Shown: piece after piece, positions 8,641 through 23,945 of the stretch
Numbering within the stretch: the first letter of the stretch is position 1
Layout: every line of letters starts with the position of its first letter
Source: an uncultured Desulfobacterales bacterium
GTDB taxonomy: Bacteria > Desulfobacterota > Desulfobacteria > Desulfobacterales > JBDRRP01
Length of the DNA stretch: 64,000 nt
Direction: 5' to 3'
Assembly (NCBI GenBank): GCA_964446485.1
Contig: CAYUOU010000008.1
Location: 2,262-66,261, forward strand
Program-made: the position numbers and the translations under genes
The notes under the pieces: model-generated
What the model saw: the letters and a program-made list of their open reading frames with translations, nothing else
The model's database searches: none
What the model was told of the DNA's origin: nothing

Positions 8641-9000
8641 GTGTGTCTCCCTGTCGAATAACGGTTTTGATATGTTATCACCCCTGCCTCGCAAACGGGT
8701 GAAACCAAAAGGGACTACAATAAGGCGCGCGGTCGACATTACAACCGCCAAGCTTGCGATTTCGCAAAAAACATTATCCGGTTCTCTGTGAAGCACCAGC
8801 TGGGGAGGGGTATTGATGGATGGAGACAGCGTAAACAATTCGCTCGGATGGTTTCTGCCTGCACCGACAGTGGATTTGTCTTTTTTTTCTGTGCACCACG
8901 GCGGCAATGCATTAAAGTTGATGAAACGGTAAAAAGTAGCAAAGTTTATCCTGCCCGGGACGATGACGAAGATGACAAGACCCTTCTGGAGGTTGGCATC

Positions 9001-11184
9001 ATGAGAGGACCAGCACTGACGACATCCGCTGAGGCGGCGGCACGATACTGGCGGGAAGCCGTGGCCTATGGCGTGGACCGCTCACAGCGAAGTATCCTGT
9101 TCTGGGATACGCTCCGCCAACGCGGCAACGCCTATTTCGCTCATCTGGAGGCCGGCCAGCCCCCCGTACTGGTCTTTGACTACGAGATGGTGACGGACGG
9201 CCGCACCTTCGACCGGCCGGTGAACTATGCCCTGGCGAGGATCCTCGACCGGCGCAGGAAAAAAGCACGGCCGACGACCGATGCCGACCGGCGCCTCGGC
9301 GTTGTTGACGGCGGCGCTGTTCCCGGTCCCAGACGTCCCATCGTGGTCATTGATCCGCGGGCCGGGCATGGGCCCGGCATCGGGGGCTCCAAATTTGATT
9401 CACAGATCGGTGCGGCCCTGGAGCACGGGCATCCGGTGTATTTTGTCTTGTTTTACACCGAGCCGGAACCGGGCCAGAGCATTGCCGATGTGCAACAGGC
9501 TGAAATCCGATTTCTCGGGGTTGTTGCCGAGCGCCACCCGGAAGCTCCCAAGCCGGCCGTCATCGGCAACTGCCAGGCCGGGTGGGCGGCGACCCTATTG
9601 GCGGCGGACCGGCCGGACCTCACCGGCCCCATCATCTTAAATGGATCTCCCCTGTCCTATTGGGGCGGGGTCGACGGCGCCAACCCCATGAGATATCGCG
9701 GCGGACTGCTGGGCGGCGCATGGCTTACCTCCCTGAGCTGTGATCTGGGGAACGGGCGTTTCGACGGCGCCAATCTGGTCGCGGGTTTCGAAGACCTGAA
9801 TCCCGCCAATACGTTGTGGGAAAAGCATTACCACCTCTTTGCCAAGGTGGATACCGAGGCGCCCCGGTTTCTTAAGTTTGAAAAATGGTGGGGCGGATTC
9901 TTTCTCATGAATGCCGAAGAAATACACTTCATCGTGGATGGACTTTTCATCGGCAACGAGTTGGAGCAGGGAAAACTGCATCTGGGCGGCGATCACCGCA
10001 TCGACCTTAAGAACATCCAGGAACCGATACTGCTCTTTGCCTCCGGCGGGGACAACATCACCCCGCCGCCCCAGGCACTCAACTGGGTGGTCAAGGTTTA
10101 CGGCAGTGTCGCGGAGATCAAGCGGCAGGGGCAGGTGATCGTCTACATGATTCACGACACCGTTGGGCATCTGGGCATTTTCGTTTCCGGGAAGGTGGCG
10201 AAAAAGGAACACCAGCAGATCGTGGGCGGGGTGGATCTGCTGGAATACCTCGCCCCCGGCCTATATGAAATGGTGATCGACGACGACCGCGCAACTCCCG
10301 GGCGGGACAACTATACGGTTCGTTTCGAACCCCGGGAAATGGAAGACATCCTCAAGCTCGACGACGGGCTCGAAGACGAGGATGCTTTTGTTCCCGTCAA
10401 CGCGGCATCCCGAATGAATGATTGGTTCTACCGCACCTGGTGCCGGCCGGTCGTCCAGGCGCTGGTGAGCGAACCCGTAGCGGAGGCGCTGCGTCAACTG
10501 CATCCGTTGAGACTCCAGCGCAGCCTGATCTCAGACATGAACCCGCTTCTCTGGAGCCTGCCGCAGATGGCCGCAGCGGTCGTTCGCCATCGGCAGCCGG
10601 CGCCGTCGGAGAACCTCTTTGCTTCCCTGGAAACCACTTTTTCCAAAGCGGTCTCCGCCGGGTGGGATCTCTACCGCGATTACCGTGATGCCACCCACCA
10701 GTTCTGGTTCAACAGCCTTTACGCCAATCCGTGGTCCCGGATGTTCTTTCCAACGAAGGAGAAGGCGTCCACTGACATCGATGCTGCCGCGCCTCAGGAG
10801 ACCGCCCCCCTTGCCGCTTACCAGGGCGGTTTTGCCGAGGCGGTGGTGCGCATTATCATCGCCGTTGCCGGTGTGAACCGGATGCTGGATAAGCGCCAGA
10901 TCGAAGCGGCGGTGGCTGTTGTCGGGCAGCACCCTCAGCTTCGGCGCATCACACCGGCTCGATACCGAGCGATGGTGAGGGCGCAAGCCGCTGTCTTAGA
11001 TGCCGACAGCGAAATCGCTTTGACCAGCTTGGGGCGGTTGCTGCCCACGCCGGCGGAGCGCGCCGAGGCGATCGATATCGCCAGGCGGATTGCCCATGGG
11101 GACACCGTTCTGGATGACGACGAGAGATCGCTGCTGGGGCGTATCAAGGCAATTCTTGGGTTGACGGGACGGGAGGCGGATTGA
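9001..11184 (+). CDS. DUF3141-like large alpha/beta-hydrolase-related protein with TerB-like C-terminal region
   Basis: 727 aa from the ATG at 9001, with GGAGG 8-9 nt upstream. The N-terminal YWREAVAYGVDRSQRSILFWDTLRQRGN... matches my memory of DUF3141. The C-terminal ~110 aa are helical and TerB-like. Confidence 0.7.
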   Translation: MRGPALTTSAEAAARYWREAVAYGVDRSQRSILFWDTLRQRGNAYFAHLEAGQPPVLVFDYEMVTDGRTFDRPVNYALARILDRRRKKARPTTDADRRLGVVDGGAVPGPRRPIVVIDPRAGHGPGIGGSKFDSQIGAALEHGHPVYFVLFYTEPEPGQSIADVQQAEIRFLGVVAERHPEAPKPAVIGNCQAGWAATLLAADRPDLTGPIILNGSPLSYWGGVDGANPMRYRGGLLGGAWLTSLSCDLGNGRFDGANLVAGFEDLNPANTLWEKHYHLFAKVDTEAPRFLKFEKWWGGFFLMNAEEIHFIVDGLFIGNELEQGKLHLGGDHRIDLKNIQEPILLFASGGDNITPPPQALNWVVKVYGSVAEIKRQGQVIVYMIHDTVGHLGIFVSGKVAKKEHQQIVGGVDLLEYLAPGLYEMVIDDDRATPGRDNYTVRFEPREMEDILKLDDGLEDEDAFVPVNAASRMNDWFYRTWCRPVVQALVSEPVAEALRQLHPLRLQRSLISDMNPLLWSLPQMAAAVVRHRQPAPSENLFASLETTFSKAVSAGWDLYRDYRDATHQFWFNSLYANPWSRMFFPTKEKASTDIDAAAPQETAPLAAYQGGFAEAVVRIIIAVAGVNRMLDKRQIEAAVAVVGQHPQLRRITPARYRAMVRAQAAVLDADSEIALTSLGRLLPTPAERAEAIDIARRIAHGDTVLDDDERSLLGRIKAILGLTGREAD

Positions 11185-14069: not shown

Positions 14070-14600
14070 ATGAACGCTATCAAGTGGGTGGTAAACGCCA
14101 TCGACACGCTCAATCTTTGGGTGGGCCGTGCGGTCTCCTGGGCGACGGGTCTGGTCGTTGTCGTGGTTTTTACAGATGTGGTGATGCGTTACGCTTTTAA
14201 CACCAGTTTCGTGTTTACCCAGGAACTCGAATGGCATTTATTTGCCTTCATCTTTCTTATGGGTGCCGGCTTCACATTGCTCAAGGACGGTCACGTCAGG
14301 GTGGACATCATCTACCAGCGGTGCAGCCCCAAGGCGAAGGCCTGGATCAATTTCCTTGGGGTGATTTTTTTTCTTATCCCCGGTTGTTATCTCATCATTC
14401 ACACCTCCTCGCTGTGGGTGTTTAACTCCTGGGCGGTCATGGAAGGCTCGCCGGACCCGGGTGGCATCCCATACAGATTCGTCATTAAAGCCTGCGTACC
14501 GGTGGGTTTCACCCTGGTTTTACTGCAGGGTGTTTCCCTGGGGCTGAAAAGCATGATGACCATTCTGGGAAAAGAGATCGAAACCGGGGAGGTCGCCTGA
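14070..14600 (+). CDS. TRAP transporter small permease (DctQ family)
   Basis: 176 aa, 4 TM. It overlaps the next gene by 1 nt (TGATG). Confidence 0.88.
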   Translation: MNAIKWVVNAIDTLNLWVGRAVSWATGLVVVVVFTDVVMRYAFNTSFVFTQELEWHLFAFIFLMGAGFTLLKDGHVRVDIIYQRCSPKAKAWINFLGVIFFLIPGCYLIIHTSSLWVFNSWAVMEGSPDPGGIPYRFVIKACVPVGFTLVLLQGVSLGLKSMMTILGKEIETGEVA

Positions 14601-15937
14601 TGGAGATGTTTCACGAATACCTGCCGGCCTGGATGTTCTTGGCCCTGACGATTTTCCTGATGGCGGGCTTCCCGGTGACCTTCACCCTGCTGGGGACCTC
14701 CCTGTGTTTCGGTCTCATCGGCTTTGGCTGGGGGTTTTTCAACCTGCTGCCCCTGCGGATCTGGGGGGTTATGGGTAACGTGACCCTGTTGGCGGTGCCG
14801 TTGTTCGTCTTCATGGGGGTCATGCTGGAGCGCTCCGGTCTTGCCGAAGAGCTGTTAGATACCATGGGCCTGCTCTTTGGCCGCATCCGTGGCGGGCTGG
14901 CCGTGTCGGTCGTTCTCGTCGGCGCATTGCTGGGGGCATCCACCGGCATCGTGGGGGCCACGGTGGTCACCATGGGGCTGCTGGCCGTGCCCACCATGCT
15001 CAAGCGCGGGTACAACAAGGAACTGGCCTGCGGTACGGTATCCGCCTCGGGCACCCTGGGGCAGATCATCCCTCCCAGCATCGTTCTGGTGCTCATCGGC
15101 GACATCGTCGGGGTTCCCGTGGGCGATCTTTTCATGGGGGCCGTCTTGCCGGGAATGGTGCTGGTGGCGCTTTATGTCCTCTACATCTTTCTTGCCGCTT
15201 GGGTACGCCCCAAATGGGCACCGCCCATTCCACGGGAAGAACTGGCCGAGTTCACCGGAAAGGATATGTACCTGCGCATCGGCAGAGCGCTGTTTCCGCC
15301 CTTGTTTCTCATGGTGGCCGTGCTGGGCTCCATTTTTGCCGGAGTGGCGTCACCCACAGAAGCCGCCGCGGTGGGCGCCGTGGGGGCGACCCTACTGACG
15401 GTGGCCAATAAAAAGTTCAGCATCACCATTTTAAGGGAAGTCATGCAGGCCACCACACAGCTCACCTGTATGGTGTTCATCATCCTGGTGGGCGCCGCTG
15501 CCTTCGGCCTGGTGTTTCGGGGCATGGGCGGCGACGAGATCGTGCGAGGGTTCCTGGGCGGATTCGCCGAGACCCACGGCAAGTGGTTCGTCCTTTTGAT
15601 CGTCATGGGATTGATTTTCGTGATCGGGTTTTTTCTCGATTTTATCGAAATTACCTTCATTCACGTGCCGGTGCTGGCCCCCATTATGATCGAATTCGGT
15701 TTCGACCCCATATGGTTTTGTATTCTCATCGCTGTGAACCTGCAAACCTCTTTCATGACCCCGCCCTTCGGGTTCTCTCTGTTTTATCTGAAAGCGGTGA
15801 CGCCGCCCGAGATCAAGACCGGTCATATTTACAGGGGCATCATTCCTTTTGTCTTTTTCCAGCTCATCGGGTTGCTCATCGTGGTGTTTTTCCCGGAGCT
15901 GGTGACATGGCTGCCGAAAATAGTCTTTGGCGGTTAG
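14600..15937 (+). CDS. TRAP transporter large permease (DctM family)
   Basis: 445 aa polytopic membrane protein with typical DctM sequence (GLLFGRIRGGLA..., TLGQIIPPSI). Confidence 0.93.
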   Translation: MEMFHEYLPAWMFLALTIFLMAGFPVTFTLLGTSLCFGLIGFGWGFFNLLPLRIWGVMGNVTLLAVPLFVFMGVMLERSGLAEELLDTMGLLFGRIRGGLAVSVVLVGALLGASTGIVGATVVTMGLLAVPTMLKRGYNKELACGTVSASGTLGQIIPPSIVLVLIGDIVGVPVGDLFMGAVLPGMVLVALYVLYIFLAAWVRPKWAPPIPREELAEFTGKDMYLRIGRALFPPLFLMVAVLGSIFAGVASPTEAAAVGAVGATLLTVANKKFSITILREVMQATTQLTCMVFIILVGAAAFGLVFRGMGGDEIVRGFLGGFAETHGKWFVLLIVMGLIFVIGFFLDFIEITFIHVPVLAPIMIEFGFDPIWFCILIAVNLQTSFMTPPFGFSLFYLKAVTPPEIKTGHIYRGIIPFVFFQLIGLLIVVFFPELVTWLPKIVFGG

Positions 15938-15973
15938 CCGTGTCTTCTGGTAGTGTACACGTCTGCCCTAAAG

Positions 15974-15996
15974 GGGGGCGGCGCGGCTGCGCCCCC
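15974..15996 (+). other. GC-rich intercistronic hairpin between dctM and dctP
   Basis: GGGGGCG (15974-15980) pairs with CGCCCCC (15990-15996). No T-run follows, so this is more likely an mRNA stabiliser or attenuator than a terminator. Confidence 0.4.
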
Positions 15997-16145
15997 TCAC
16001 AATAGGCTTCAAACGCGCACCGGCGTGGCGTTCCGGCGGCGGCCGTCTGGGAAATCCGACCGCTGCCGCCTCAGCGTGCATCCCATTTGGGAACAACAAA
16101 CGCCGCCGCGGTCAGTCTTAACCCCAACGAAAGGAGTCTGGCGGA

Positions 16146-17249
16146 ATGAAAAGAAGAGACTTTCTGAAAACGACAGGTAAGGCAGCAGTAGCGGCCGCCG
16201 CCGCGACCACCATCGGTGCGCCGGCGGTTCACGCTGCGAAGAAGTATCGCTGGAAAATGGTCACCACCTGGCCACCGAATTTGCCAGTGCTTCAAACCGG
16301 CGCCGTGAGGTTTGCGAAACGTGTCGAGGAGGTCACCGACGGCCAGATCAAAATTCAGGTCTTTGCCGGCGGGGAGCTGGTTCCGCCATTGGGGGTTTTT
16401 GACGCTGTCTCTGACGGTACGGTGGAAGTGGGCTCCGGCGCCTCCTATTACTGGGCAGGGAAAGTGCCCGCGGCCCAATGGTTTGCGGCCGTGCCCTTCG
16501 GCTTCAATGCACAAGGGATCAATGCCTGGTTTTACAGCGCCGGCGGTCTCCAGCTGTGGGAAGAAGTCTACGCCCCCTTCAACCTCGTGCCGCGGCCCCA
16601 GGGCAACACGGGCGTGCAGATGGGCGGATGGTTCCGCAAGGAAATGAACAGCATCAGCGACTACAAGGGCCTTAAGATGCGTATCCCCGGCCTGGGCGGA
16701 AAGGTCATCGCTAAGGCGGGTGGCACGGTCGTGCTGCTGCCCGGCGGGGAGATCTTCACCTCCTTGGAGCGTGGTGTTCTCGACGCCACGGAGTGGGTCG
16801 GCCCCATGCACGATCTTCGGATGGGATTCTACAAAGCGGCCAAGTACTACTACTACCCCGGCTGGCATGAGCCCGGAACCTGCCTGGAAGTCATGTTCAA
16901 CAAAAAGGTCTATGACTCCCTGCCCAAGGGGCTCCAGGCGACCCTGGATGCTGTGGCCGCAGAGACGAACATGTGGAGCCTCAGCGAATTCGAGGCCGGC
17001 AACGGCGCGGCCCTCCAGGAACTGATCAGCAAGCACAACGTCAACCTGGTGCGGTTCCCGGAGCCGCTGCTTGACTCGTTGCGCGACTTGGCCAAGGAGA
17101 CGCTGGAAGAAGAGGCGGCCAAGGATGCCATGAGCAGAAAGGTCCACGAAGCGTTCAAGGCGTTCAAGGCGCAGGTCGGCGTCTGGGGATCCGTCTCCGA
17201 AAACGCCTACTACAACGTCATCGCAGACAAGTATAAACTCAAGATGTAA
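16146..17249 (+). CDS. TRAP transporter substrate-binding protein (DctP-type, Tat-like signal)
   Basis: 367 aa with the twin-arginine-like leader MKRRDFLKTTGKAAVAAAAA and AAGGAG RBS. It belongs to the family whose gene order is Q-M-P. Confidence 0.9.
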   Translation: MKRRDFLKTTGKAAVAAAAATTIGAPAVHAAKKYRWKMVTTWPPNLPVLQTGAVRFAKRVEEVTDGQIKIQVFAGGELVPPLGVFDAVSDGTVEVGSGASYYWAGKVPAAQWFAAVPFGFNAQGINAWFYSAGGLQLWEEVYAPFNLVPRPQGNTGVQMGGWFRKEMNSISDYKGLKMRIPGLGGKVIAKAGGTVVLLPGGEIFTSLERGVLDATEWVGPMHDLRMGFYKAAKYYYYPGWHEPGTCLEVMFNKKVYDSLPKGLQATLDAVAAETNMWSLSEFEAGNGAALQELISKHNVNLVRFPEPLLDSLRDLAKETLEEEAAKDAMSRKVHEAFKAFKAQVGVWGSVSENAYYNVIADKYKLKM

Positions 17250-17286
17250 CGCGGCGGCGAAAGCGCCGTTGCCATGTGACAAAAGT

Positions 17287-17313
17287 CCCCGTGAAAGATC
17301 GCGGGGGCTTTTT
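17287..17313 (+). terminator. rho-independent terminator after dctP
   Basis: CCCCGTG...CGCGGGG stem followed by GCTTTTT (17287-17313). Confidence 0.7.
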
Positions 17314-17443
17314 CGCCGTCTGCCAGTGAAACATCGGCACCCGGGCGATGAAAAAGTGGATTGCCTTTCAAAAATCAGCGCTGACGCACGCCGTGAATTA
17401 AAGATGTGATGTTGAAGGCATTCAACAGCGGTAGGAATAGCGG

Positions 17444-18148
17444 TCAGGAGGTTAGTGCCGCGGCATCCTTCTCTGACAACCCGCCGGTGATAAACAACGG
17501 TATGGGAGACGGGCACAGGCCGTTCATCCGGGCCAGGTCCTTTTCGCCGCAGTAGCCCTTGGCGGCGTATCCGGCGGCCAGGCCCTCGGCGGTGATGATC
17601 TGGATGTGCGTGTGATGGAACCAGTTGCCGTTTTCGTTGAAATCGCCGATCTCGGCAAATGCTTCCCCGGCCGAAAGCATTTTGCCGGTTGCCGGCAGCC
17701 GGCTTCCGCACAGATGGCCGTAAAAGCTGAAGAAGCTGTCCACGTTCGGGCTGTCGTGCCTTAACAGGACATAGCCGCCGTAGTTGCCTTCGCCGGCTTC
17801 GTAACCGGTTTCAGCCACTACGCTATCCAGCGGTGCCTGGAGCGTCGTGCCCAGTGGTACGATGACATCGAGCCCTAGGTGGAAAAACCGCTGCTCGGCC
17901 ACCATCTGCGGGCAGTCGCCAAGCAGGGTGTCGCGGCGCTCCAGGTAGGGCGCCACCCCCCATTGGTGTCCCCCGTTGGCCATTTCTTTGTTCAGTACCC
18001 CCTGAAACGATTTTTGATCACGCGCATCGCAGCCTTCCAGCAGGGGGCTCGTCAAAGAAAGATCCGCCACATAGGGGTCACCGGCCAGCCCCTTGAAAAC
18101 GGGGTGGTGCCGGACATTCGGACTGAAAAGACAAAATGGGTAATACAT
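17444..18148 (-). CDS. cytosolic peptidase M23 (LytM)-like domain protein
   Basis: 234 aa with no signal peptide or TM segment. Both zinc motifs are retained: HxxxD (FHLGLD) and HxH (HHTHIQ). There is a 14 nt gap to the upstream KamA-like gene. Confidence 0.8.
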   Translation of the reverse strand: MYYPFCLFSPNVRHHPVFKGLAGDPYVADLSLTSPLLEGCDARDQKSFQGVLNKEMANGGHQWGVAPYLERRDTLLGDCPQMVAEQRFFHLGLDVIVPLGTTLQAPLDSVVAETGYEAGEGNYGGYVLLRHDSPNVDSFFSFYGHLCGSRLPATGKMLSAGEAFAEIGDFNENGNWFHHTHIQIITAEGLAAGYAAKGYCGEKDLARMNGLCPSPIPLFITGGLSEKDAAALTS

Positions 18149-18162
18149 GCCGTTTCAAAGCC

Positions 18163-20622
18163 TCATGAAAGTGCGAAATCGGTTGTTTTCTTCAAGCCCG
18201 AGAGCGGGATGATCGGTTTTGCGTCCGCACTGACGGTCACGTTTTCGGGCCAGGTAAATGTCGAATCCATGCTTCGATAGTAATCCAGGTCGTAGGGCTG
18301 CAGTGTCACCGACAGGTCTTCGCCAGCACCGTTGATCACAGCGTTTAGACCGAAATCAACCTCACCAAGGGCCGTGTCGATGATGTAGCGGGGCACTTCC
18401 CGGCCGCTGCCTTCCCGGCGCACCCGGGTGGCGATGTCCACCACGTCGTAAAGGGCGACCGGATTGTCGGCATTCCAGGATTCCTGCACCGGCAGGCCGG
18501 CCACATAGAGATGATGATATTCGATACCGGCCTGACGGCACCGGTAGGCCAGTTCGTGGATGTCGTCGGGGGAGTCGTTGACCCGGCCCAGCAGCGGGGT
18601 ATTGGCGTACACGGTGATCCCCCGATTGGTGAGTCGGCGCACCACCGCGGTGTGCGTCGGCCGGAGCTCGTCGGCCTGCAGGAACTGGGTTTCGATCTCA
18701 AGGCGCAGCGGATTGACGATACTCAGCCGGTTCAGGGTGCCCATCCGGTCGATGACCGCCGGCGTAAAGGCTTCGGGGTGGTAGGCGAACTTGAGGCTGC
18801 GCAGCCTGACGGCATTGACGTGGTGTATCTGCCCAAGCGCGGTGACAACACGCGCGATATGAAACAAGGTGTCGACGGCGTCTTTTTCGGAGGCGATGAT
18901 GATATCGGTGATGCGCGCATCGGCGCGGATGTAATCCAGCGCCTCGCCGGCGGCTTCGGTGGTGACGGCCACCCGGGTCTCATGGAGCCGCGAAACGCCG
19001 GGGATGCCGGTACGGACAATGGACCGGGCGATCCGCTGATCCGTCATGAGTTCGGCCACGAAGTCTTGTGCGCGCGCCTTCACGCGTTCCGGCTCGCCCC
19101 CTGGCCGCAGCGGCCGGGCGCCGAGAAAAAGCGTCTCATCGCCGATCTTGGCCATGTACTTGATGTCGAGGGTCCCCTCCGCGTTGACCCGGATGTTGGT
19201 AAGCTCGTTGGCGATGGGGGCAAAAGATTTGAAATACGCTGGCGTGTACGGGCTGCGGATCCAGATGAAGTGATCGTTATCGGCCACCGGCGCCACCGCC
19301 CAGCCGCTGGTGTGCCAGTCCATTTTGCCGATGGGCGTGGCCGTGCAGATTCTCGGGATCACGCGGTCGGAGAGGTGGGCGCGCAGGTAGCTGCCCACGG
19401 CCAGCCCCTTGGAAATGGGCGACCAGTAAATGCTGTTGCCGTGGATGGGGCTGCAGGGGATGTAGATGTAGTGGAGCTCGGCGCCGGCCCCACGCAGCAG
19501 GCTGAACAGCGCTACCAGCTCGGGTCCGGTATCGTTGCAGTCGTTCAAAAAGGGTGTCTGAACATAGACGGCGACGCCGCTGTTGACCAGTTCGGTGATG
19601 ATGGACAGGCTCTGGGGCGATATCTCGTCCGGGTGGATAAAGTGGGTGGCCACCTCCATCCGTTTTCCCCGCTCCTGGAGCTCCAGGTGTTTTCGCTTCA
19701 GCCACGTGAGATAGGCGCCTTCGTTGGCGAGAAACATGTGGGGGTAGTAGGCGATGGCGCGGGTCGCCAGCCGTAGCGTCTGCACGTGGTCGACTTCCAT
19801 CAGGCCGTCGATGGCGGCGGCCATGTTGGTGCGACTCATGAAGGGGTCGCCCCCGGTGACGACGACTTCTTTGATGGACGGTGAACGCCTGACATGATCC
19901 ACCGCCTTTTTTACATCTTCGACGGTGGGGTTGGCCTCGTTTCGGGAATCCTTGTGCTTGCGGAAGCAAAACCGGCAGTACACCGGGCAGCTCATGTTGA
20001 GCAGGAAGATGACCCGGTTTTCGTACATCTGCTCCAGAAGCCCCTGGTGAAACTGTCCGATCCAGGTATTGGTGTGACCCACCTTACCCAGCTCCTCGAT
20101 GAAGGGCAGATACTGGTAGGCCACGTCGCGGGACACCCGCATTTGGCGGATGGTGTGCATGCTGAGTCGCACCGGGTAGGTGTCAATGACGCGCTGCATG
20201 TCGGTGCGCTCGGCTTCCGGCACGTGGATACTGGTCAGTTGCTCGAGCTGGTCGACGGTTTTCACCGAGATGAACCGATTCCCCGGCAGCACGATTTCCA
20301 GAACGGCCACAAGGAGCCGGTGCGGCATGGCAATGCCGTTGACGGTGATGTGCATCGCGCCGTCGGCCTTTGAGAGCGCTGCGAGCAGGGTCTGGAAGAA
20401 GCCTTCGGGCGCATCGGCAAACCCTGTCGCTTCAAGCAGGCGTGCCAGTTTGGCATCCCCGTCGCCGGTCTTGATCACGGCCGCGAATGCACTGCCAGTC
20501 AGAGACGTCTCACCGAACTGATCGAGAAATGCCGTGAGCCCGGTCACCAGGTCCGAAAGGGCCACGCGGCGAGGTTCGTCGTGGTCAAAGGAAACATCCA
20601 AATACGTATCTTCGTGTGACAT
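18163..20622 (-). CDS. KamA-family (lysine 2,3-aminomutase-like) radical SAM protein, 819 aa, with extra N-terminal domain and duplicated degenerate second core
   Basis: CPVYCRFC (19966-19989) is the KamA-type CxxxCxxC, and VVVTGGDP is the SAM motif. Residues ~545-757 repeat the ~205-436 core without the cysteines. Start is the ATG at 20622 (MSHEDTY). Confidence 0.88.
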   Translation of the reverse strand: MSHEDTYLDVSFDHDEPRRVALSDLVTGLTAFLDQFGETSLTGSAFAAVIKTGDGDAKLARLLEATGFADAPEGFFQTLLAALSKADGAMHITVNGIAMPHRLLVAVLEIVLPGNRFISVKTVDQLEQLTSIHVPEAERTDMQRVIDTYPVRLSMHTIRQMRVSRDVAYQYLPFIEELGKVGHTNTWIGQFHQGLLEQMYENRVIFLLNMSCPVYCRFCFRKHKDSRNEANPTVEDVKKAVDHVRRSPSIKEVVVTGGDPFMSRTNMAAAIDGLMEVDHVQTLRLATRAIAYYPHMFLANEGAYLTWLKRKHLELQERGKRMEVATHFIHPDEISPQSLSIITELVNSGVAVYVQTPFLNDCNDTGPELVALFSLLRGAGAELHYIYIPCSPIHGNSIYWSPISKGLAVGSYLRAHLSDRVIPRICTATPIGKMDWHTSGWAVAPVADNDHFIWIRSPYTPAYFKSFAPIANELTNIRVNAEGTLDIKYMAKIGDETLFLGARPLRPGGEPERVKARAQDFVAELMTDQRIARSIVRTGIPGVSRLHETRVAVTTEAAGEALDYIRADARITDIIIASEKDAVDTLFHIARVVTALGQIHHVNAVRLRSLKFAYHPEAFTPAVIDRMGTLNRLSIVNPLRLEIETQFLQADELRPTHTAVVRRLTNRGITVYANTPLLGRVNDSPDDIHELAYRCRQAGIEYHHLYVAGLPVQESWNADNPVALYDVVDIATRVRREGSGREVPRYIIDTALGEVDFGLNAVINGAGEDLSVTLQPYDLDYYRSMDSTFTWPENVTVSADAKPIIPLSGLKKTTDFALS

Positions 20623-20657: not shown

Positions 20658-20723
20658 TTGACAAAAATTTTGCGGCCTGGCTATAACTATTATAGTAATG
20701 TCTTTCCCATAATAGTATGTCAA
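20658..20723. promoter_or_regulatory. divergent control region with inverted repeat (candidate IclR operator)
   Basis: Plus strand: TTGACA (20658-63), 18 nt, TATAAC (20682-87). Minus strand: perfect TATAAT (20694-20689) and TTGACA (20723-20718), but 23 nt apart. The inverted repeat ACTATTAT (20686-93) / ATAATAGT (20709-16) spans both. Confidence 0.5.
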
Positions 20724-20736
20724 TTATCCGCATGGA

Positions 20737-21531
20737 ATGACGATGTCAAAGGGAAAGTTCTATTTTTCAAAATCTTTGGAAAAAGGGCTGAAAATCCTTT
20801 CCCAGTTCAACAGGGAGACCCCCACCCTGACGCAGAGCGAAATCGCCAAGACATTGTCCCTGAACATGACCTCCACGTACCGCTACATCAACACGCTGGT
20901 GGAGCTAGGGTATCTGGAAAAGGATGCGAAGACCAAGGCGATCCGCCCGACGGTCCACTGCCTGATGTTTTGCACCAACCTCATCCGCGCCACCGACCAC
21001 CTGCGTCTGATGAAAGGGGTCGTCGACCGTATTCACGCCGAGCACAACATCAGCATCGAGGTGGCCTTTGTGGTGGATGACACGCTGGTGCGGTTTTACA
21101 ACAAGGAGGCGGCCGAAACACTCACCTACAGTCTGCCAGATTTCTCGAAAAACAGCCTTCACAACACGGCCCTCGGAAAGGCCTATCTGTCGAGTCTGCC
21201 CGCCGGGGTGATGGCGGAAAAAATCGACGGCCTGATCCTGAGTGGTAAGACGCAGCACACCATTTTGGACAAGAAGTCCCTGATGACGGAACTCACGGCG
21301 ACCCGGGCGCGCCGATACGCCATGTGCGTGGAGGAGTTTTTACCTGGCCTGATCGCCATCGGCGCCCCCCTGATTGATCCCCACAGCGGGCAGGGGGTCG
21401 GCGCGGTGTCGTTTGATTTTTCGGTGATCCAGAAAACCGCAGAGGACATCGAGGAAAAGTATGCCGGATTGATTGTCTCGGCGGCGGCCGCGCTCTCCGA
21501 GTTGCTGCCACCCGAGCGGCACCACGGATAA
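20737..21531 (+). CDS. IclR-family transcriptional regulator
   Basis: 264 aa. SLEKGLKILSQFNRETPTLTQSEIAKTLSLNMTSTYRYINTLVELGYLEKD is an IclR wHTH. The C-terminal portion is an effector domain. Confidence 0.9.
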   Translation: MTMSKGKFYFSKSLEKGLKILSQFNRETPTLTQSEIAKTLSLNMTSTYRYINTLVELGYLEKDAKTKAIRPTVHCLMFCTNLIRATDHLRLMKGVVDRIHAEHNISIEVAFVVDDTLVRFYNKEAAETLTYSLPDFSKNSLHNTALGKAYLSSLPAGVMAEKIDGLILSGKTQHTILDKKSLMTELTATRARRYAMCVEEFLPGLIAIGAPLIDPHSGQGVGAVSFDFSVIQKTAEDIEEKYAGLIVSAAAALSELLPPERHHG

Positions 21532-21618
21532 TCGCCGGTATCACAGTGAATGATTGATCGCAGCCCCATTGACAGGCTGAAACCAATCAACCCTAACCCA
21601 TCACCAAGGAGCGTTCAG

Positions 21619-22386
21619 ATGAGAAAGACAGTCGCAAGCCTACTAATCGTTTTGTTGTGCGGTTTTGCCGCGAGTACGGTCATGGCCGGAGACTTGGCCA
21701 ATGTCATCAAGACCGGGAAAATTTCCATGGCCATGAGCGGCCAGTACCCGCCGTTCAATTTTGTCAACGATAAGAACCAGTTGACCGGGTTTGACGTGGA
21801 AATCGGTCAGGCCGTGGCCAAACGCATCGGTATCAAGGCCATGCCGCTGTCCACCGCCTGGGATGGCATCATTGCCGGTCTGTTGGCGAATAAATATGAA
21901 TTGATCTGCGGCAGCATGGCCATCACGCCGGAGCGCCTCAAGTCCATCGATTTTTCCGATCCCTATTACCGCTCAGGCGCGCAGTTGTTCGTGAAGAAAG
22001 GCGCTGCCATCAGATCGGTGAAGGATCTCGCCGGGAAAAAGGTCGGCTGCACGCTAGGCACCACTTACGAGAAATGGGTGCGGGAGAATATCCCCAATGC
22101 CGACGTGAAGACATACAAAGGCGTTCCAGACATGATTCTCGAAGTGGGTTACGGCCGCATCGAGGGATTCATCACAGACAAGATTGTCGGCGCCCTGGCG
22201 ATCAAAGAAAAGGGCGCTCCCATCGCCCTGGCCGGTGATCTGCTCTACGAGGAGCGGATGGGCATCGCCCTGCGGCAGAACAACCCGGATCTGAAGGCCG
22301 CCATCAACGGCGCGCTGGCTGTCATGAAAAACGACGGTACCTACCACGAGATCTCCATGAAGTGGCTGGGTATCGACGTCCGATAG
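21619..22386 (+). CDS. amino-acid ABC transporter substrate-binding protein (polar amino acid, family 3)
   Basis: Signal peptide MRKTVASLLIVLLCGFAASTVMA, then YPPFNF and FDVEIGQAVAKRIG motifs. Start is the ATG at 21619, with AAGGA RBS. Confidence 0.9.
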   Translation: MRKTVASLLIVLLCGFAASTVMAGDLANVIKTGKISMAMSGQYPPFNFVNDKNQLTGFDVEIGQAVAKRIGIKAMPLSTAWDGIIAGLLANKYELICGSMAITPERLKSIDFSDPYYRSGAQLFVKKGAAIRSVKDLAGKKVGCTLGTTYEKWVRENIPNADVKTYKGVPDMILEVGYGRIEGFITDKIVGALAIKEKGAPIALAGDLLYEERMGIALRQNNPDLKAAINGALAVMKNDGTYHEISMKWLGIDVR

Positions 22387-22392
22387 GTTGGG

Positions 22393-22432
22393 CGCCCCAC
22401 CTGCCCTGCGCGAGGCCGCGCGGGGTGGGGCG
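22393..22432 (+). other. intercistronic hairpin after the binding-protein gene
   Basis: CGCCCCACC (22393-22401) pairs perfectly with GGTGGGGCG (22424-22432). This is typical of a differential-expression element between SBP and permease genes. Confidence 0.5.
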
Positions 22433-22500
22433 GGCGCGGCAATATGCCGCGTCCGCTCCCGCCATCACAGTCCTGACGTGAACGCCAAAGGATGCCGACT

Positions 22501-23157
22501 ATGTTAGACTGGGAAATCATCATTCATTACTTTCCCTTTCTGTTGAAAGGGGCGCTGCTGACGCTGGAGATTTCCATACTGTCGCTGATCCTCGGACTGG
22601 TGGCCGGGCTGAGCGCCGCGCTGCTGAAGCTGGGGAACAATTTTCTGCTGCGCAACCTTGCGGCGTTCTACATCTGGCTCATTCGGTCCACTCCGCTGCT
22701 GGTTCAGTTGTTCATCATTTACTTCGGGCTGCCCCAACTAGGAATCGACCTGGGCCCCTTCATGTCCGGGGTTTTGGGGCTGGGGCTCAACGTGGGGGCC
22801 TACAACGCGGAGACCATCCGGGGCGGCATCCAGTCCATCGACAGGGGCCAGCAGGAGGCGGCGCGCTCTTTGGGCATGAGCGGGGCGCTGACCATGCGGC
22901 GGATTATTCTTCCCCAGGCGCTGCGTATCATCGTCCCACCCCTGGGAAACAACTTCATCATCCTCATCAAGGATACTTCGCTGGTCTCCACCATCACACT
23001 CGTGGAATTGACGCTGACGGCCCAGCGTTTCATCGGGTCCACCTACAAGCCCTTTGAAATGTATGTCATGGCCGCCTTCCTGTATGCTGTTCTCACCACG
23101 ACGGCCAGCGTTCTTTTGGGCAAACTGGAAGCACGAACCAACAAGGGGCGTCGATAG
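22501..23157 (+). CDS. amino-acid ABC transporter permease (HisM/GlnP type)
   Basis: 5 TM with the EAA-like loop QSIDRGQQEAARSLGMS. The ATG at 22501 has better RBS spacing than the one at 22492. Confidence 0.9.
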   Translation: MLDWEIIIHYFPFLLKGALLTLEISILSLILGLVAGLSAALLKLGNNFLLRNLAAFYIWLIRSTPLLVQLFIIYFGLPQLGIDLGPFMSGVLGLGLNVGAYNAETIRGGIQSIDRGQQEAARSLGMSGALTMRRIILPQALRIIVPPLGNNFIILIKDTSLVSTITLVELTLTAQRFIGSTYKPFEMYVMAAFLYAVLTTTASVLLGKLEARTNKGRR

Positions 23158-23159
23158 CC

Positions 23160-23945
23160 ATGCAACCGGATAAAAATCGAAGTGAGACTGCGGTCCCCAT
23201 GGTCCGGATCGAAGCGCTTCACAAGCATTTCGGAACGTTGGAAGTATTGCGCGGGGTGGACATCACGGTGCCCCGCCAGCAGGTGCTGGTGATCATCGGT
23301 CCCAGCGGGTCGGGCAAAAGCACACTGCTCCGGTGCGTCAATCACCTGGAGCCCCCCACCGAGGGAAAGGTCTACCTTGACGGCGAGCTGGTCAACGACA
23401 CCACGCTGGGGCACAAGGCCTTCGAAAAACACCTCAACCGCATCCGCTGCAAGCTCGGCATGGTGTTTCAGCAGTTCAACCTGTTTCCCCATATGAGCGT
23501 CGTGGAGAACGTGATGGAGGCGCCGGTGCATGTGCTGGGGCAGGCCAAGGACCCGGCGCGGCAGACGGCTGAAGAACTCCTGGAAAAGGTCGGTCTTCTG
23601 GAAAAAGCCGACACCTATCCGGGGATGCTTTCCGGCGGCCAGCAGCAGCGGGTGGCCATCGCCCGGGCGCTGGCCATGTCGCCCAAGGCCATGCTGTTTG
23701 ACGAAGTCACCTCGGCGCTGGATCCCGAACTGGTGGGCGATGTGCTCCGGGTCATGGCGGACCTGGCCAAGGAGGGCATGACCATGTTGGTCGTGACTCA
23801 TGAAATGGGTTTTGCCGAGCAGGTGGGCGACCGGGTTATTTTCATGGCCGACGGCCTCGTGGTGGAAGACGCCGCGCCCCAGCAGATGTTTTCGGCGCCC
23901 CAAAAAGCCCGGACCCGTCAATTCCTTTCGGAAATATTAAAGTGA
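23160..23945 (+). CDS. amino-acid ABC transporter ATP-binding protein
   Basis: Walker A GPSGSGKST, signature LSGGQQQRVAIARAL, Walker B MLFDE. Alternative start at 23199. Confidence 0.95.
   Translation: MQPDKNRSETAVPMVRIEALHKHFGTLEVLRGVDITVPRQQVLVIIGPSGSGKSTLLRCVNHLEPPTEGKVYLDGELVNDTTLGHKAFEKHLNRIRCKLGMVFQQFNLFPHMSVVENVMEAPVHVLGQAKDPARQTAEELLEKVGLLEKADTYPGMLSGGQQQRVAIARALAMSPKAMLFDEVTSALDPELVGDVLRVMADLAKEGMTMLVVTHEMGFAEQVGDRVIFMADGLVVEDAAPQQMFSAPQKARTRQFLSEILK

Follow-up and report, generated by a model that had tools for sequence, protein, structure and literature searches.

A tandem KamA-type radical SAM protein with one complete and one degenerate core, encoded in a conserved gene cluster of Desulfobacterales and Desulfobulbales

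KamA-type aminomutases are textbook radical S-adenosylmethionine (SAM) enzymes and sources of beta-amino acids, but the substrate specificities established so far are few. To our knowledge, every member characterised to date is a homo-oligomer whose chains contain one core each. In methanogens, the lysine 2,3-aminomutase AblA and the beta-lysine N-acetyltransferase AblB serve the synthesis of N-epsilon-acetyl-beta-lysine, and in Bacillus the gene order is, as we take it, yodP-kamA. The pairing of an active with a degenerate radical SAM subunit is known from Dph1-Dph2. The lysine 2,3-aminomutase (LAM; KamA/AblA) of Clostridium subterminale (2A5H), with chains of about 416 aa, is a homotetramer built from domain-swapped dimers (PMC6411801). 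Here we describe a protein with two KamA-type cores in one chain. It is encoded in a 64,000-nucleotide stretch (the window) of contig CAYUOU010000008.1 from an uncultured Desulfobacterales bacterium (assembly GCA_964446485.1), by the minus-strand open reading frame (ORF) at positions 18163..20622, stop codon included. This 819-aa tandem KamA-type radical SAM protein is referred to as rSAM2x. While its chemistry class is familiar, the combination of an active with a degenerate core and the accompanying gene cluster appear to be undescribed. A first-pass annotation of the window, made from the DNA letters alone, had taken the tandem active-plus-degenerate architecture to be one that is not known for the KamA family. 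Indeed, no description of such a protein or of its gene cluster was found in NCBIfam, Pfam, the PDB or in papers, the coverage of the literature being incomplete.

A longer reading of the rSAM2x ORF, from an ATG at 20733 and yielding 856 aa, is also possible. However, almost all of the 120 best database relatives are 818-823 aa long and, aligned from residue 1, have the same start as ATG 20622, and a strong Shine-Dalgarno sequence (AAAGGGGG) lies just 5' of this codon. ATG 20622 is therefore the right start, so that the 819-aa length and the coordinates proposed in the first-pass annotation stand. Pfam recognises one short Radical_SAM/Fer4_12 stretch in the protein (aa 206-268). The gene and its parts are as follows.

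18163..20622, minus strand: rSAM2x gene, taken from the ORF list, with the start set by homologue lengths and the Shine-Dalgarno sequence
20269..20622, minus strand: N-terminal domain (aa 1-118), small alpha/beta, without a Pfam or NCBIfam match; AlphaFold2 predicted local distance difference test (pLDDT) score of 73
20023..20268, minus strand: KamA-type N-terminal helices (aa 119-200); the TIGR03820 alignment begins at aa 119, and the N-termini of single-domain KamA relatives align here
19315..20022, minus strand: copy 1, complete KamA core (aa 201-436), with a match to 2a5h over aa 197-432; best-conserved segment
19966..19989, minus strand: CPVYCRFC [4Fe-4S] motif (C212/C216/C219), recognised by Pfam Radical_SAM and Fer4_12; invariant in 232 members
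19846..19854, minus strand: SAM-binding motif of the GGE type (G257-G258-D259), aligned with SGGD of LAM; G257 and G258 invariant
19324..19326, minus strand: K433, predicted Schiff-base lysine for pyridoxal 5'-phosphate (PLP), in a P-x-G-K column; invariant
19153..19314, minus strand: C-terminal tail of copy 1 (aa 437-490; W-I-R-S-P-Y-T...F), from the alignment with P0169, P0171, P0175 and P0185
19003..19152, minus strand: variable, indel-rich linker (aa 491-540) of low conservation (0.50), with pLDDT below 50 at aa 493-512
18352..19002, minus strand: copy 2, degenerate KamA core (aa 541-757), from BLASTP, hhalign, shuffles and independent matches to KamA models
18166..18351, minus strand: C-terminal tail of copy 2 (aa 758-819; L-Q-P-Y-D...Y), a duplicate of the copy 1 tail

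The two halves of rSAM2x are clearly homologous. BLASTP of aa 136-470 against aa 471-818 gave 26% identity over 238 aa (88 bits, E 3e-24), and the Smith-Waterman score between the halves was 223, as compared to 32.8 +/- 4.9 in 500 shuffles (maximum 52, z = 39). Likewise, the comparison of family profile with family profile by hhalign returned a probability of 98.8% and an E-value of 1.2e-16 over 237 columns (aa 225-469 against aa 548-787). A second copy of the barrel at about aa 545-757 had been proposed from three pairs of similar segments, all of which do correspond and lie within the BLAST alignment. The outcome that had been named as speaking against this proposal, namely a lack of self-similarity in a proper alignment, is irreconcilable with E 3e-24 and z = 39.

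Analysed on their own, the C-terminal 349 aa match KamA models (TIGR03822, E 2.6e-12), yet the match does not begin before position 118 of the 321 profile positions. The C-terminal half therefore does not contain the N-terminal helices and the cluster loop, and Pfam finds no domain in it. In the joint alignment, copy 2 lacks CxxxCxxC, shows ASEKD in place of TGGD, and has E754 in place of K433. The absence of the CxxxCxxC and GGD motifs had been noticed in the first-pass annotation, and the loss of the PLP lysine has to be added to it. Since neither cluster binding nor formation of a PLP aldimine is possible, copy 2 does not represent another active site like that of copy 1. A role as pseudo-enzyme or substrate-binding half, as suggested in that annotation, is plausible.

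The duplicated unit includes the C-terminal tail (IWIRSPYTPAYFKSF in copy 1, VTLQPYDLDYYRSM in copy 2). Beyond orthologous copy 2 regions, the best matches of copy 2 are copy 1 of the same family (88-94 bits), with the closest KamA proteins of the single-domain type next (77-86 bits) and LAM-like proteins well behind (about 40-55 bits). This ranking, together with the duplicated tail, indicates a tandem duplication within the lineage and not a fusion of distant paralogues. The simplest history would thus be a tandem duplication within a sub-lineage, followed by loss of the cofactor sites of the second copy. The nearest single-domain relatives of copy 1 form a clade of KamA proteins of 370-412 aa (P0169, P0171, P0175 and P0185; 29-34% identity) that share the tail motif of copy 1 (W/Y-I-R/K-T/S-P-Y/F-T...F), three of which also lack the lysine-binding aspartate pair discussed below. 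They look like the ancestral unit of the duplication; each consists of a single core, and the N-terminal domain seen in rSAM2x is missing from them. A split heterodimer, with copy 2 encoded by a stand-alone gene, was also considered. Among the four hits to aa ~480-819 that were checked there was no convincing case: P0165 and P0157 have no initial Met, while P0141 and P0182 start at a possibly internal Met and look like truncated gene calls.

Copy 1 carries all the sequence features of a PLP- and SAM-dependent aminomutase. C212, C216, C219, R221, G257, G258 and K433 are invariant across 232 full-length members of the family, with identities down to 37%. Copy 1 thus has the CxxxCxxC motif of the KamA family (TIGR00238), and its G257-G258-D259, aligned with SGGD of LAM, corresponds to the GGD/GGE SAM motif. 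Both CPVYCRFC at 19966-19989 and VVVTGGDP are present where the first-pass annotation had placed the canonical module. K433 falls in the P-x-G-K column common to the seven complete KamA-family sequences that were aligned, as would be expected of the PLP lysine. The LAM fragment in this alignment stops just before the K433 column, and we take K433 to be the counterpart of Lys337 of LAM. R221, two residues past the third cluster cysteine, occupies the position of the LAM arginine that binds the substrate carboxylate.

All KamA-type models of NCBIfam match rSAM2x at aa ~119-437, with two matched stretches per model. The TIGR00238 model of the KamA family gave 149.5 bits against a cut-off of 199.2 (E 1e-43), which signifies clear homology outside the curated boundary. 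The score for lysine 2,3-aminomutase (TIGR03820; AblA/KamA) was 163.2 bits, far from the equivalog cut-off of 525.4, and the models for glutamate 2,3-aminomutase, arginine 2,3-aminomutase (BlsG) and EpmB gave 139, 131 and 128 bits, respectively, with cut-offs of 650, 600 and 369. The latter three enzymes belong to the same family as rSAM2x, but they have one core each and their models score far below the cut-offs. For EpmB, which carries out beta-lysylation of EF-P, the score for TIGR03821 was 128.3 bits against 369.3, and no epmA or efp neighbour was present in the window or in 83 related loci in which genes were clustered.

By sequence, the only solved relative is LAM (2a5h; E 1.9e-22 over aa 197-432), which resembles copy 1 in fold, CxxxCxxC, GGD/E, the arginine and the PLP-lysine column. 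In contrast to LAM, rSAM2x has two cores per chain, one of which is competent, and an extra N-terminal domain. It has neither a LAM_C domain nor conserved zinc-binding cysteines, and the Asp pair is replaced. The LAM_C model (PF12544) has no match in rSAM2x, although it does match two of the KamA fusion proteins described below (P0235 and P0264). No cysteine outside CxxxCxxC is conserved among the 232 members. A second Fe-S or zinc site was ruled out as unlikely, the three cluster cysteines being the sole invariant ones. S391 and A428 of rSAM2x occupy the columns of Asp293 and Asp330 of LAM and are identical in all 83 locus-encoded proteins examined. In LAM, the two aspartates reportedly bind the epsilon-ammonium group of lysine, and both are kept in relatives with a LAM_C domain. 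Because this pair is replaced, free lysine is unlikely to be the substrate of rSAM2x; a neutral, N-acylated or shorter side chain would, speculatively, suit it better.

Two longer KamA proteins offer a different parallel. P0235 (690 aa) combines KamA with an LD-carboxypeptidase of family S66, and P0264 (702 aa) combines it with an ATP-grasp protein resembling D-Ala-D-Ala ligase, so that both have amide-bond partners, as does rSAM2x with the M23-like protein described below. Their extra domain is an unrelated enzyme instead of a second KamA core, and LAM_C and the Asp pair are kept. Together these cases show that the pairing of KamA with amide-bond enzymes is a recurrent theme. This suggests that KamA-made beta-amino acids may often be ligated into, or released from, amide conjugates.

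The N-terminal domain is the second addition to the canonical module. It had been described as ~135 aa of unrelated sequence. Its lack of detectable relatives stands, but its length is ~118 aa, KamA homology starting at aa 119 in the TIGR03820 alignment. The domain has no match in Pfam or NCBIfam, no similarity to either core (z about 0 in the shuffle test), and its model, of moderate confidence (pLDDT 73), found no Foldseek match in the PDB (best E 0.89). It thus appears to be undescribed.

The family is widespread. More than 1000 database proteins match rSAM2x, and the top 120 are full-length with 67-100% identity. An exhaustive search of cluster representatives returned full-length relatives of 808-850 aa with identities down to 37%. 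In a scan of one genome per species, 564 stretches encode relatives. The best 80 of these 564 stretches all contain full-length genes, several of them on megabase contigs, and their hosts are Desulfobacterales, Desulfobulbales, Desulfotignum, Desulfobacula, Desulfosarcina and related metagenome-assembled genomes (MAGs). Many metagenomes also hold relatives of ~820 aa. In culture, the family is represented by, among others, Desulfocicer vacuolatum DSM 3385 (WP_084071245.1) and Desulfoferrobacter suflitae. A survey of homologue lengths and architectures, as the first-pass annotation had proposed, thus shows the long form to recur at 818-823 aa. Its reservation that this form might be a mis-assembly or fusion artefact does not hold, given the ~820-aa relatives in at least 80 species genomes. 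Public databases list the family as 'lysine 2,3-aminomutase', 'EF-P beta-lysylation pathway' (one record, the Desulfocicer protein) or 'radical SAM protein', names that are generic or probably wrong, and the M23-like partner as 'peptidoglycan DD-metalloendopeptidase'. The public annotation of the family and its partner is misleading.

Both cores are conserved. Expressed as the mean frequency of the commonest residue per column in the 232 full-length members, conservation was 0.77 for the copy 1 core, 0.65 for the copy 2 core, 0.50 for the linker and 0.50 for the N-terminal domain, which is the least conserved part of rSAM2x. Copy 2 contains 21 near-invariant residues (R545, H547, D573, R606, E642, E644, G668, Y672, N682, R696, G709, Q713, R735, S739, G740, R741, P744, T750, G753, D756 and P792), which are mostly polar or charged and 20 of which fall within aa 541-757. 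Copy 2 is therefore maintained by selection, and this purifying selection is strong.

A full-length AlphaFold2 model had a mean pLDDT of 72 and a predicted template modelling (pTM) score of 0.73. Confidence is highest in copy 2, where block means of pLDDT mostly reach 75-95 (aa 511-730), and the cofactor loops of copy 1 have the lowest confidence, which is to be expected since no cofactors were modelled. The pTM of the whole chain suggests a defined arrangement of the domains in the model. LAM is the best structural match (Foldseek E 8.6e-11).

The genes surrounding rSAM2x were compared by calling and clustering ORFs in 83 related loci and annotating the recurrent clusters. One conserved gene set emerged, which occurs in three layouts.

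Layout A: genes for an Amidohydro_3 protein, a proline-racemase-like protein, a PotABCD-like importer and an IclR regulator on one strand; rSAM2x followed by the M23-like gene, divergent
Layout B: the layout A genes all co-directional, with a sigma-54/PAS activator and a small gene for 108-120 aa that lies immediately 5' of the rSAM2x start or overlaps it; found in D. vacuolatum
Layout C: a gene for an AblB-like acetyltransferase followed by rSAM2x, beside the genes for Amidohydro_3, the racemase-like protein and the importer; without M23

In 57 of the 73 loci with enough flank, the M23-like gene is the next gene 3' of rSAM2x. The encoded protein scores over the Pfam cut-off for Peptidase_M23 and has the zinc ligands and the catalytic His of this family: its LytM-type zinc site (H90xxxD94, H145, H179xH181) is intact and at least 97% conserved in 177 members. 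By eye, its N-terminus (MYYPFCLFSPNVRHHPVFKG...) has no hydrophobic leader. To judge from its sequence, the protein more probably acts on a small amide in the cytoplasm than on the cell wall. The protein also matches the middle segment (positions 388-570) of the PRK06148/PRK06149 models of ~1000-aa proteins (E 1e-28), which we take to be kinase/class-III aminotransferase fusions. If so, this likeness would connect the unusual cytoplasmic M23 domain with enzymes whose targets are amino groups other than the alpha one.

The proline-racemase-like protein is of the Cys/Cys type and nearest to proline racemase (390 bits). An AblB-family gene is found directly 5' of rSAM2x in at least six loci, which matches the yodP-kamA order, and the acetyltransferase encoded in locus L081 scores 334.1 bits against the TIGR03827 equivalog cut-off of 205.1. 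Unlike AblA, rSAM2x is a tandem protein without the lysine-specific residues, its gene stands beside importer, amidohydrolase and racemase genes, and its partner is mostly M23 and not AblB. M23-type and AblB-type rSAM2x proteins are identical at all candidate active-site residues, and the same reaction is therefore probable for both. Occasional members of the cluster are an MppQ-like aminotransferase (11 loci) and a CN-hydrolase (5 loci). In the sigma-54-type loci L034, L035, L048, L062, L069 and L085, the small protein of 108-120 aa is encoded immediately 5' of rSAM2x. It has no Pfam or NCBIfam match and is absent from the window and from IclR-type loci, and in D. vacuolatum there is an overlap of 4 nt between its stop codon and the start of rSAM2x. 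Two convergent rSAM2x paralogues are present on one MAG contig (L021), the first with the M23-like gene behind it and the second with an AblB-like gene in front. Another locus (L071) likewise shows two rSAM2x-type ORFs. Regulators, importers and hydrolases in one cluster speak for a utilisation pathway that is inducible.

In the window, the following features surround the rSAM2x gene.

17444..18148, minus strand: gene for the M23-type zinc hydrolase (234 aa; Pfam Peptidase_M23), starting 14 nt past the rSAM2x stop
17376..17393, minus strand: hairpin resembling a terminator, 3' of the M23-like gene and recognised by a consensus match only
20687..20716, minus strand: two paired boxes resembling an operator, ACTATTATGG-N10-TTACTATAATAG, between the divergent genes
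20737..21531, plus strand: divergent gene for an IclR-family regulator (Pfam HTH_IclR and IclR_C)
21550..23945, plus strand: ATP-binding cassette (ABC) importer of the polar-amino-acid type (binding protein 21550-22386, permease 22492-23157, ATPase 23160-23945), arranged as in loci L002, L003 and L045
23955..24044, plus strand: remnant of an AblB-like N-acetyltransferase gene (first ~30 codons), found by tblastn after the ABC ATPase gene

The hairpin at 17376..17393 probably marks the end of the operon. An IclR regulator gene is located upstream and divergent in 34 loci. The pattern ACTATwATAG-N(5-14)-TTACTATwATAGT, followed by a conserved (A)ATGTCAAT, occurs in 28 of these 34 IclR-type intergenic regions, and it has only 31 matches on both strands of 1.3 Mb of loci. 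The paired boxes are thus likely to be the IclR operator, overlapping hexamers that resemble -10 elements. The importer of the window differs from that in most other loci, which is PotABCD-like and not of the polar-amino-acid type. Its binding protein is nearest to cystine and Lys/Arg/Orn types, and its ATPase and permease are nearest to ectoine, glutamine and cystine types, all under the respective cut-offs. With these scores, and PotD-like proteins in most other loci, an assignment of the substrate from the transporters was not possible. The closest full locus (L002) has an Amidohydro_3 gene and a complete AblB-like gene where the window has the remnant. The window thus contains a reduced locus of the L002 type, with the IclR and polar-amino-acid importer genes and rSAM2x followed by M23, and it appears to have lost Amidohydro_3 and the intact AblB-like gene.

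Taking these observations together, we consider it most probable (roughly 55%) that rSAM2x belongs to the lineage of PLP-dependent radical SAM aminomutases (KamA) and forms a pseudo-heterodimer within a single chain. In copy 1 (aa ~119-490), a [4Fe-4S] cluster on C212/C216/C219 would reductively cleave SAM bound at G257-G258-D259, while PLP on K433 would carry the amino group of the substrate and R221 would take the place of the carboxylate-binding arginine. Copy 2 (aa ~541-819), arisen by tandem duplication of core and tail with subsequent loss of the cluster loop, the SAM motif and the PLP lysine, would be non-catalytic. Most likely, it occupies the place of the second subunit in an obligate KamA-type dimer, where it would pack on copy 1 and close or shape its active site. 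From the motifs of copy 1 we infer an aminomutase activity that would interconvert an alpha-amino acid and its beta-isomer, the substrate probably not being free lysine. The enzyme would act in a substrate-inducible pathway under IclR or sigma-54 control, together with the ABC importer, Amidohydro_3 and the Cys/Cys proline-racemase-like enzyme. As to the direction of this pathway, an amide-linked or cyclic precursor might be opened by Amidohydro_3 or M23, followed by alpha/beta interconversion, and the cytoplasmic M23-type hydrolase would probably cleave an amide conjugate of the amino acid. The replacement of M23 by the AblB-like N-acetyltransferase in some genomes suggests that the same reaction can feed N-acetylation.

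The assumed division of labour has a conceptual counterpart in Dph1-Dph2, where a competent radical SAM module is likewise paired with a homologous partner that lacks the cofactor ligands. This likeness is limited to the concept, as Dph1 and Dph2 belong to another fold family, are separate polypeptides and not a tandem fusion, and do not involve PLP. What the second subunit contributes to a dimer could be learned, as in a natural experiment, from a conserved tandem in which one core is active and the other degenerate, and rSAM2x would exemplify a dead duplicate that has been retained and repurposed. Desulfobacterales and Desulfobulbales are key mineralisers of carbon and nitrogen in anoxic sediments, and the presence of the cluster in many of them probably marks a new route for the use of organic nitrogen or for osmolyte turnover. 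The system could be tested in culture, since D. vacuolatum DSM 3385 has the full cluster.

It should be noted that several findings weigh against a pseudo-heterodimeric aminomutase. Every curated KamA-family model scores under its cut-off. In addition, the secondary structure of the model places the charged invariant residues of copy 2 (R545, H547, E642, E644 and R606) at C-terminal strand ends, the usual ligand-binding face, where they would suit a pocket at least as well as an interface. The invariants R545, H547, E644 and Q713, which are specific to copy 2, leave room for a ligand pocket or a new function. Covariation between the copies (mutual information with average product correction; 305 sequences, effective number 120) was dominated by phylogeny and by gappy linker columns. 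Furthermore, the packing may differ from that of the LAM dimer, because LAM_C and the zinc-binding cysteines, which stabilise that dimer, are absent. Lastly, the proline-racemase-like enzyme has no explained place in an aminomutase-centred pathway.

A more far-reaching interpretation, which seems possible to us but which we hold only tentatively, is that rSAM2x founds a new class of radical SAM/PLP enzymes. The degenerate barrel would then provide a new pocket or second site, and the enzyme would act on a new aminomutase substrate, such as a neutral amino acid or a diamino acid that is N-acylated or short-chained. This would be the key step of a widespread pathway through which an abundant organic nitrogen compound is used by marine sulfate reducers. 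We know of no natural aminomutase recognised for a substrate of this kind.

That copy 2 is mainly a ligand-binding domain with a pocket of its own, and not a dimer mimic, appears rather unlikely. Such a pocket might hold a second substrate or an allosteric effector or serve substrate delivery, which would make rSAM2x bifunctional or regulated; in a variant, H547, E642, E644, D573 and D756 could even form a new, non-radical catalytic site. The mostly polar or charged character of the 21 near-invariant positions would fit, as would the restriction of R545, H547, E644 (A325 in copy 1) and Q713 (H394) to copy 2 and the mapping of such copy-2-specific invariants to the C-terminal ends of barrel strands in the AlphaFold2 secondary structure. 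However, R606, E642, N682, R696, R735, S739, R741, P744, T750, G753 and D756 are invariant in copy 1 too and may therefore reflect upkeep of the fold, no known ligand motif was recognised, and the C-terminal half is empty in Pfam.

The direction of the pathway could also be reversed. By analogy with AblA/AblB, rSAM2x and the AblB-like enzyme might make an N-acetyl-beta-amino acid as a compatible solute, with M23 and the amidohydrolase responsible for its turnover. The position of the AblB-family gene (TIGR03827, 334 bits) directly upstream in at least six loci, the remnant in the window, and the largely marine or saline habitats of the sulfate-reducing hosts are compatible with this biosynthetic role. 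We nevertheless regard it as unlikely, since the commonest layout lacks AblB and combines an importer, an IclR or sigma-54/PAS regulator and two hydrolases, as in an inducible utilisation system. Moreover, with the same active-site residues in AblB-type and M23-type rSAM2x, one reversible reaction could serve both directions.

It is doubtful that rSAM2x is not a small-molecule 2,3-aminomutase at all and carries out some other PLP/radical reaction or acts on a peptide- or protein-bound residue, in which case the M23 peptidase and, where present, the small 108-120-aa protein would be substrate-processing partners. The distance of all curated aminomutase models from their cut-offs, specificity residues unlike those of every characterised aminomutase, a partner from a peptidase family and the small gene at the rSAM2x start in sigma-54-type loci could all be read in this way. 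Yet the invariance of R221 and of the PLP lysine is what a free amino acid as substrate would lead one to expect, most of the cluster encodes solute importers and enzymes for small molecules, and the small protein is missing from the window and IclR-type loci.

Finally, an assembly or fusion artefact, or a decaying duplicate, for which the unusual length alone would speak, can be dismissed with near certainty, as the 818-823-aa form is shared by independent assemblies numbering in the hundreds (complete chromosomes and a cultured type strain among them), full-length relatives extend to 37% identity, and copy 2 is under purifying selection.

Several other features of the window were inspected alongside the rSAM2x locus. 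No Rfam match to a riboswitch or other RNA element was obtained across the whole window. One gene group lies next to the operon and is convergent with it.

14070..17249, plus strand: genes for a tripartite ATP-independent periplasmic (TRAP) transporter, DctQ/DctM/DctP, identified by Pfam

Its membership in the operon is doubtful and it is probably unrelated, as it is not conserved beside rSAM2x elsewhere: the 83 related loci contain no DctP or DctQ homologue and only two DctM matches. An ORF of 546 aa at 16071-17711 on the minus strand is spurious, since it overlaps the real DctP gene (16146-17249, plus strand) and the M23-like gene; long antisense ORFs of this kind are typical where the G+C content is about 60%. 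Further away, a 798-aa DUF3141 protein (E 6e-231), encoded at 8788-11184 on the plus strand, adjoins HtpG and is unrelated to rSAM2x.

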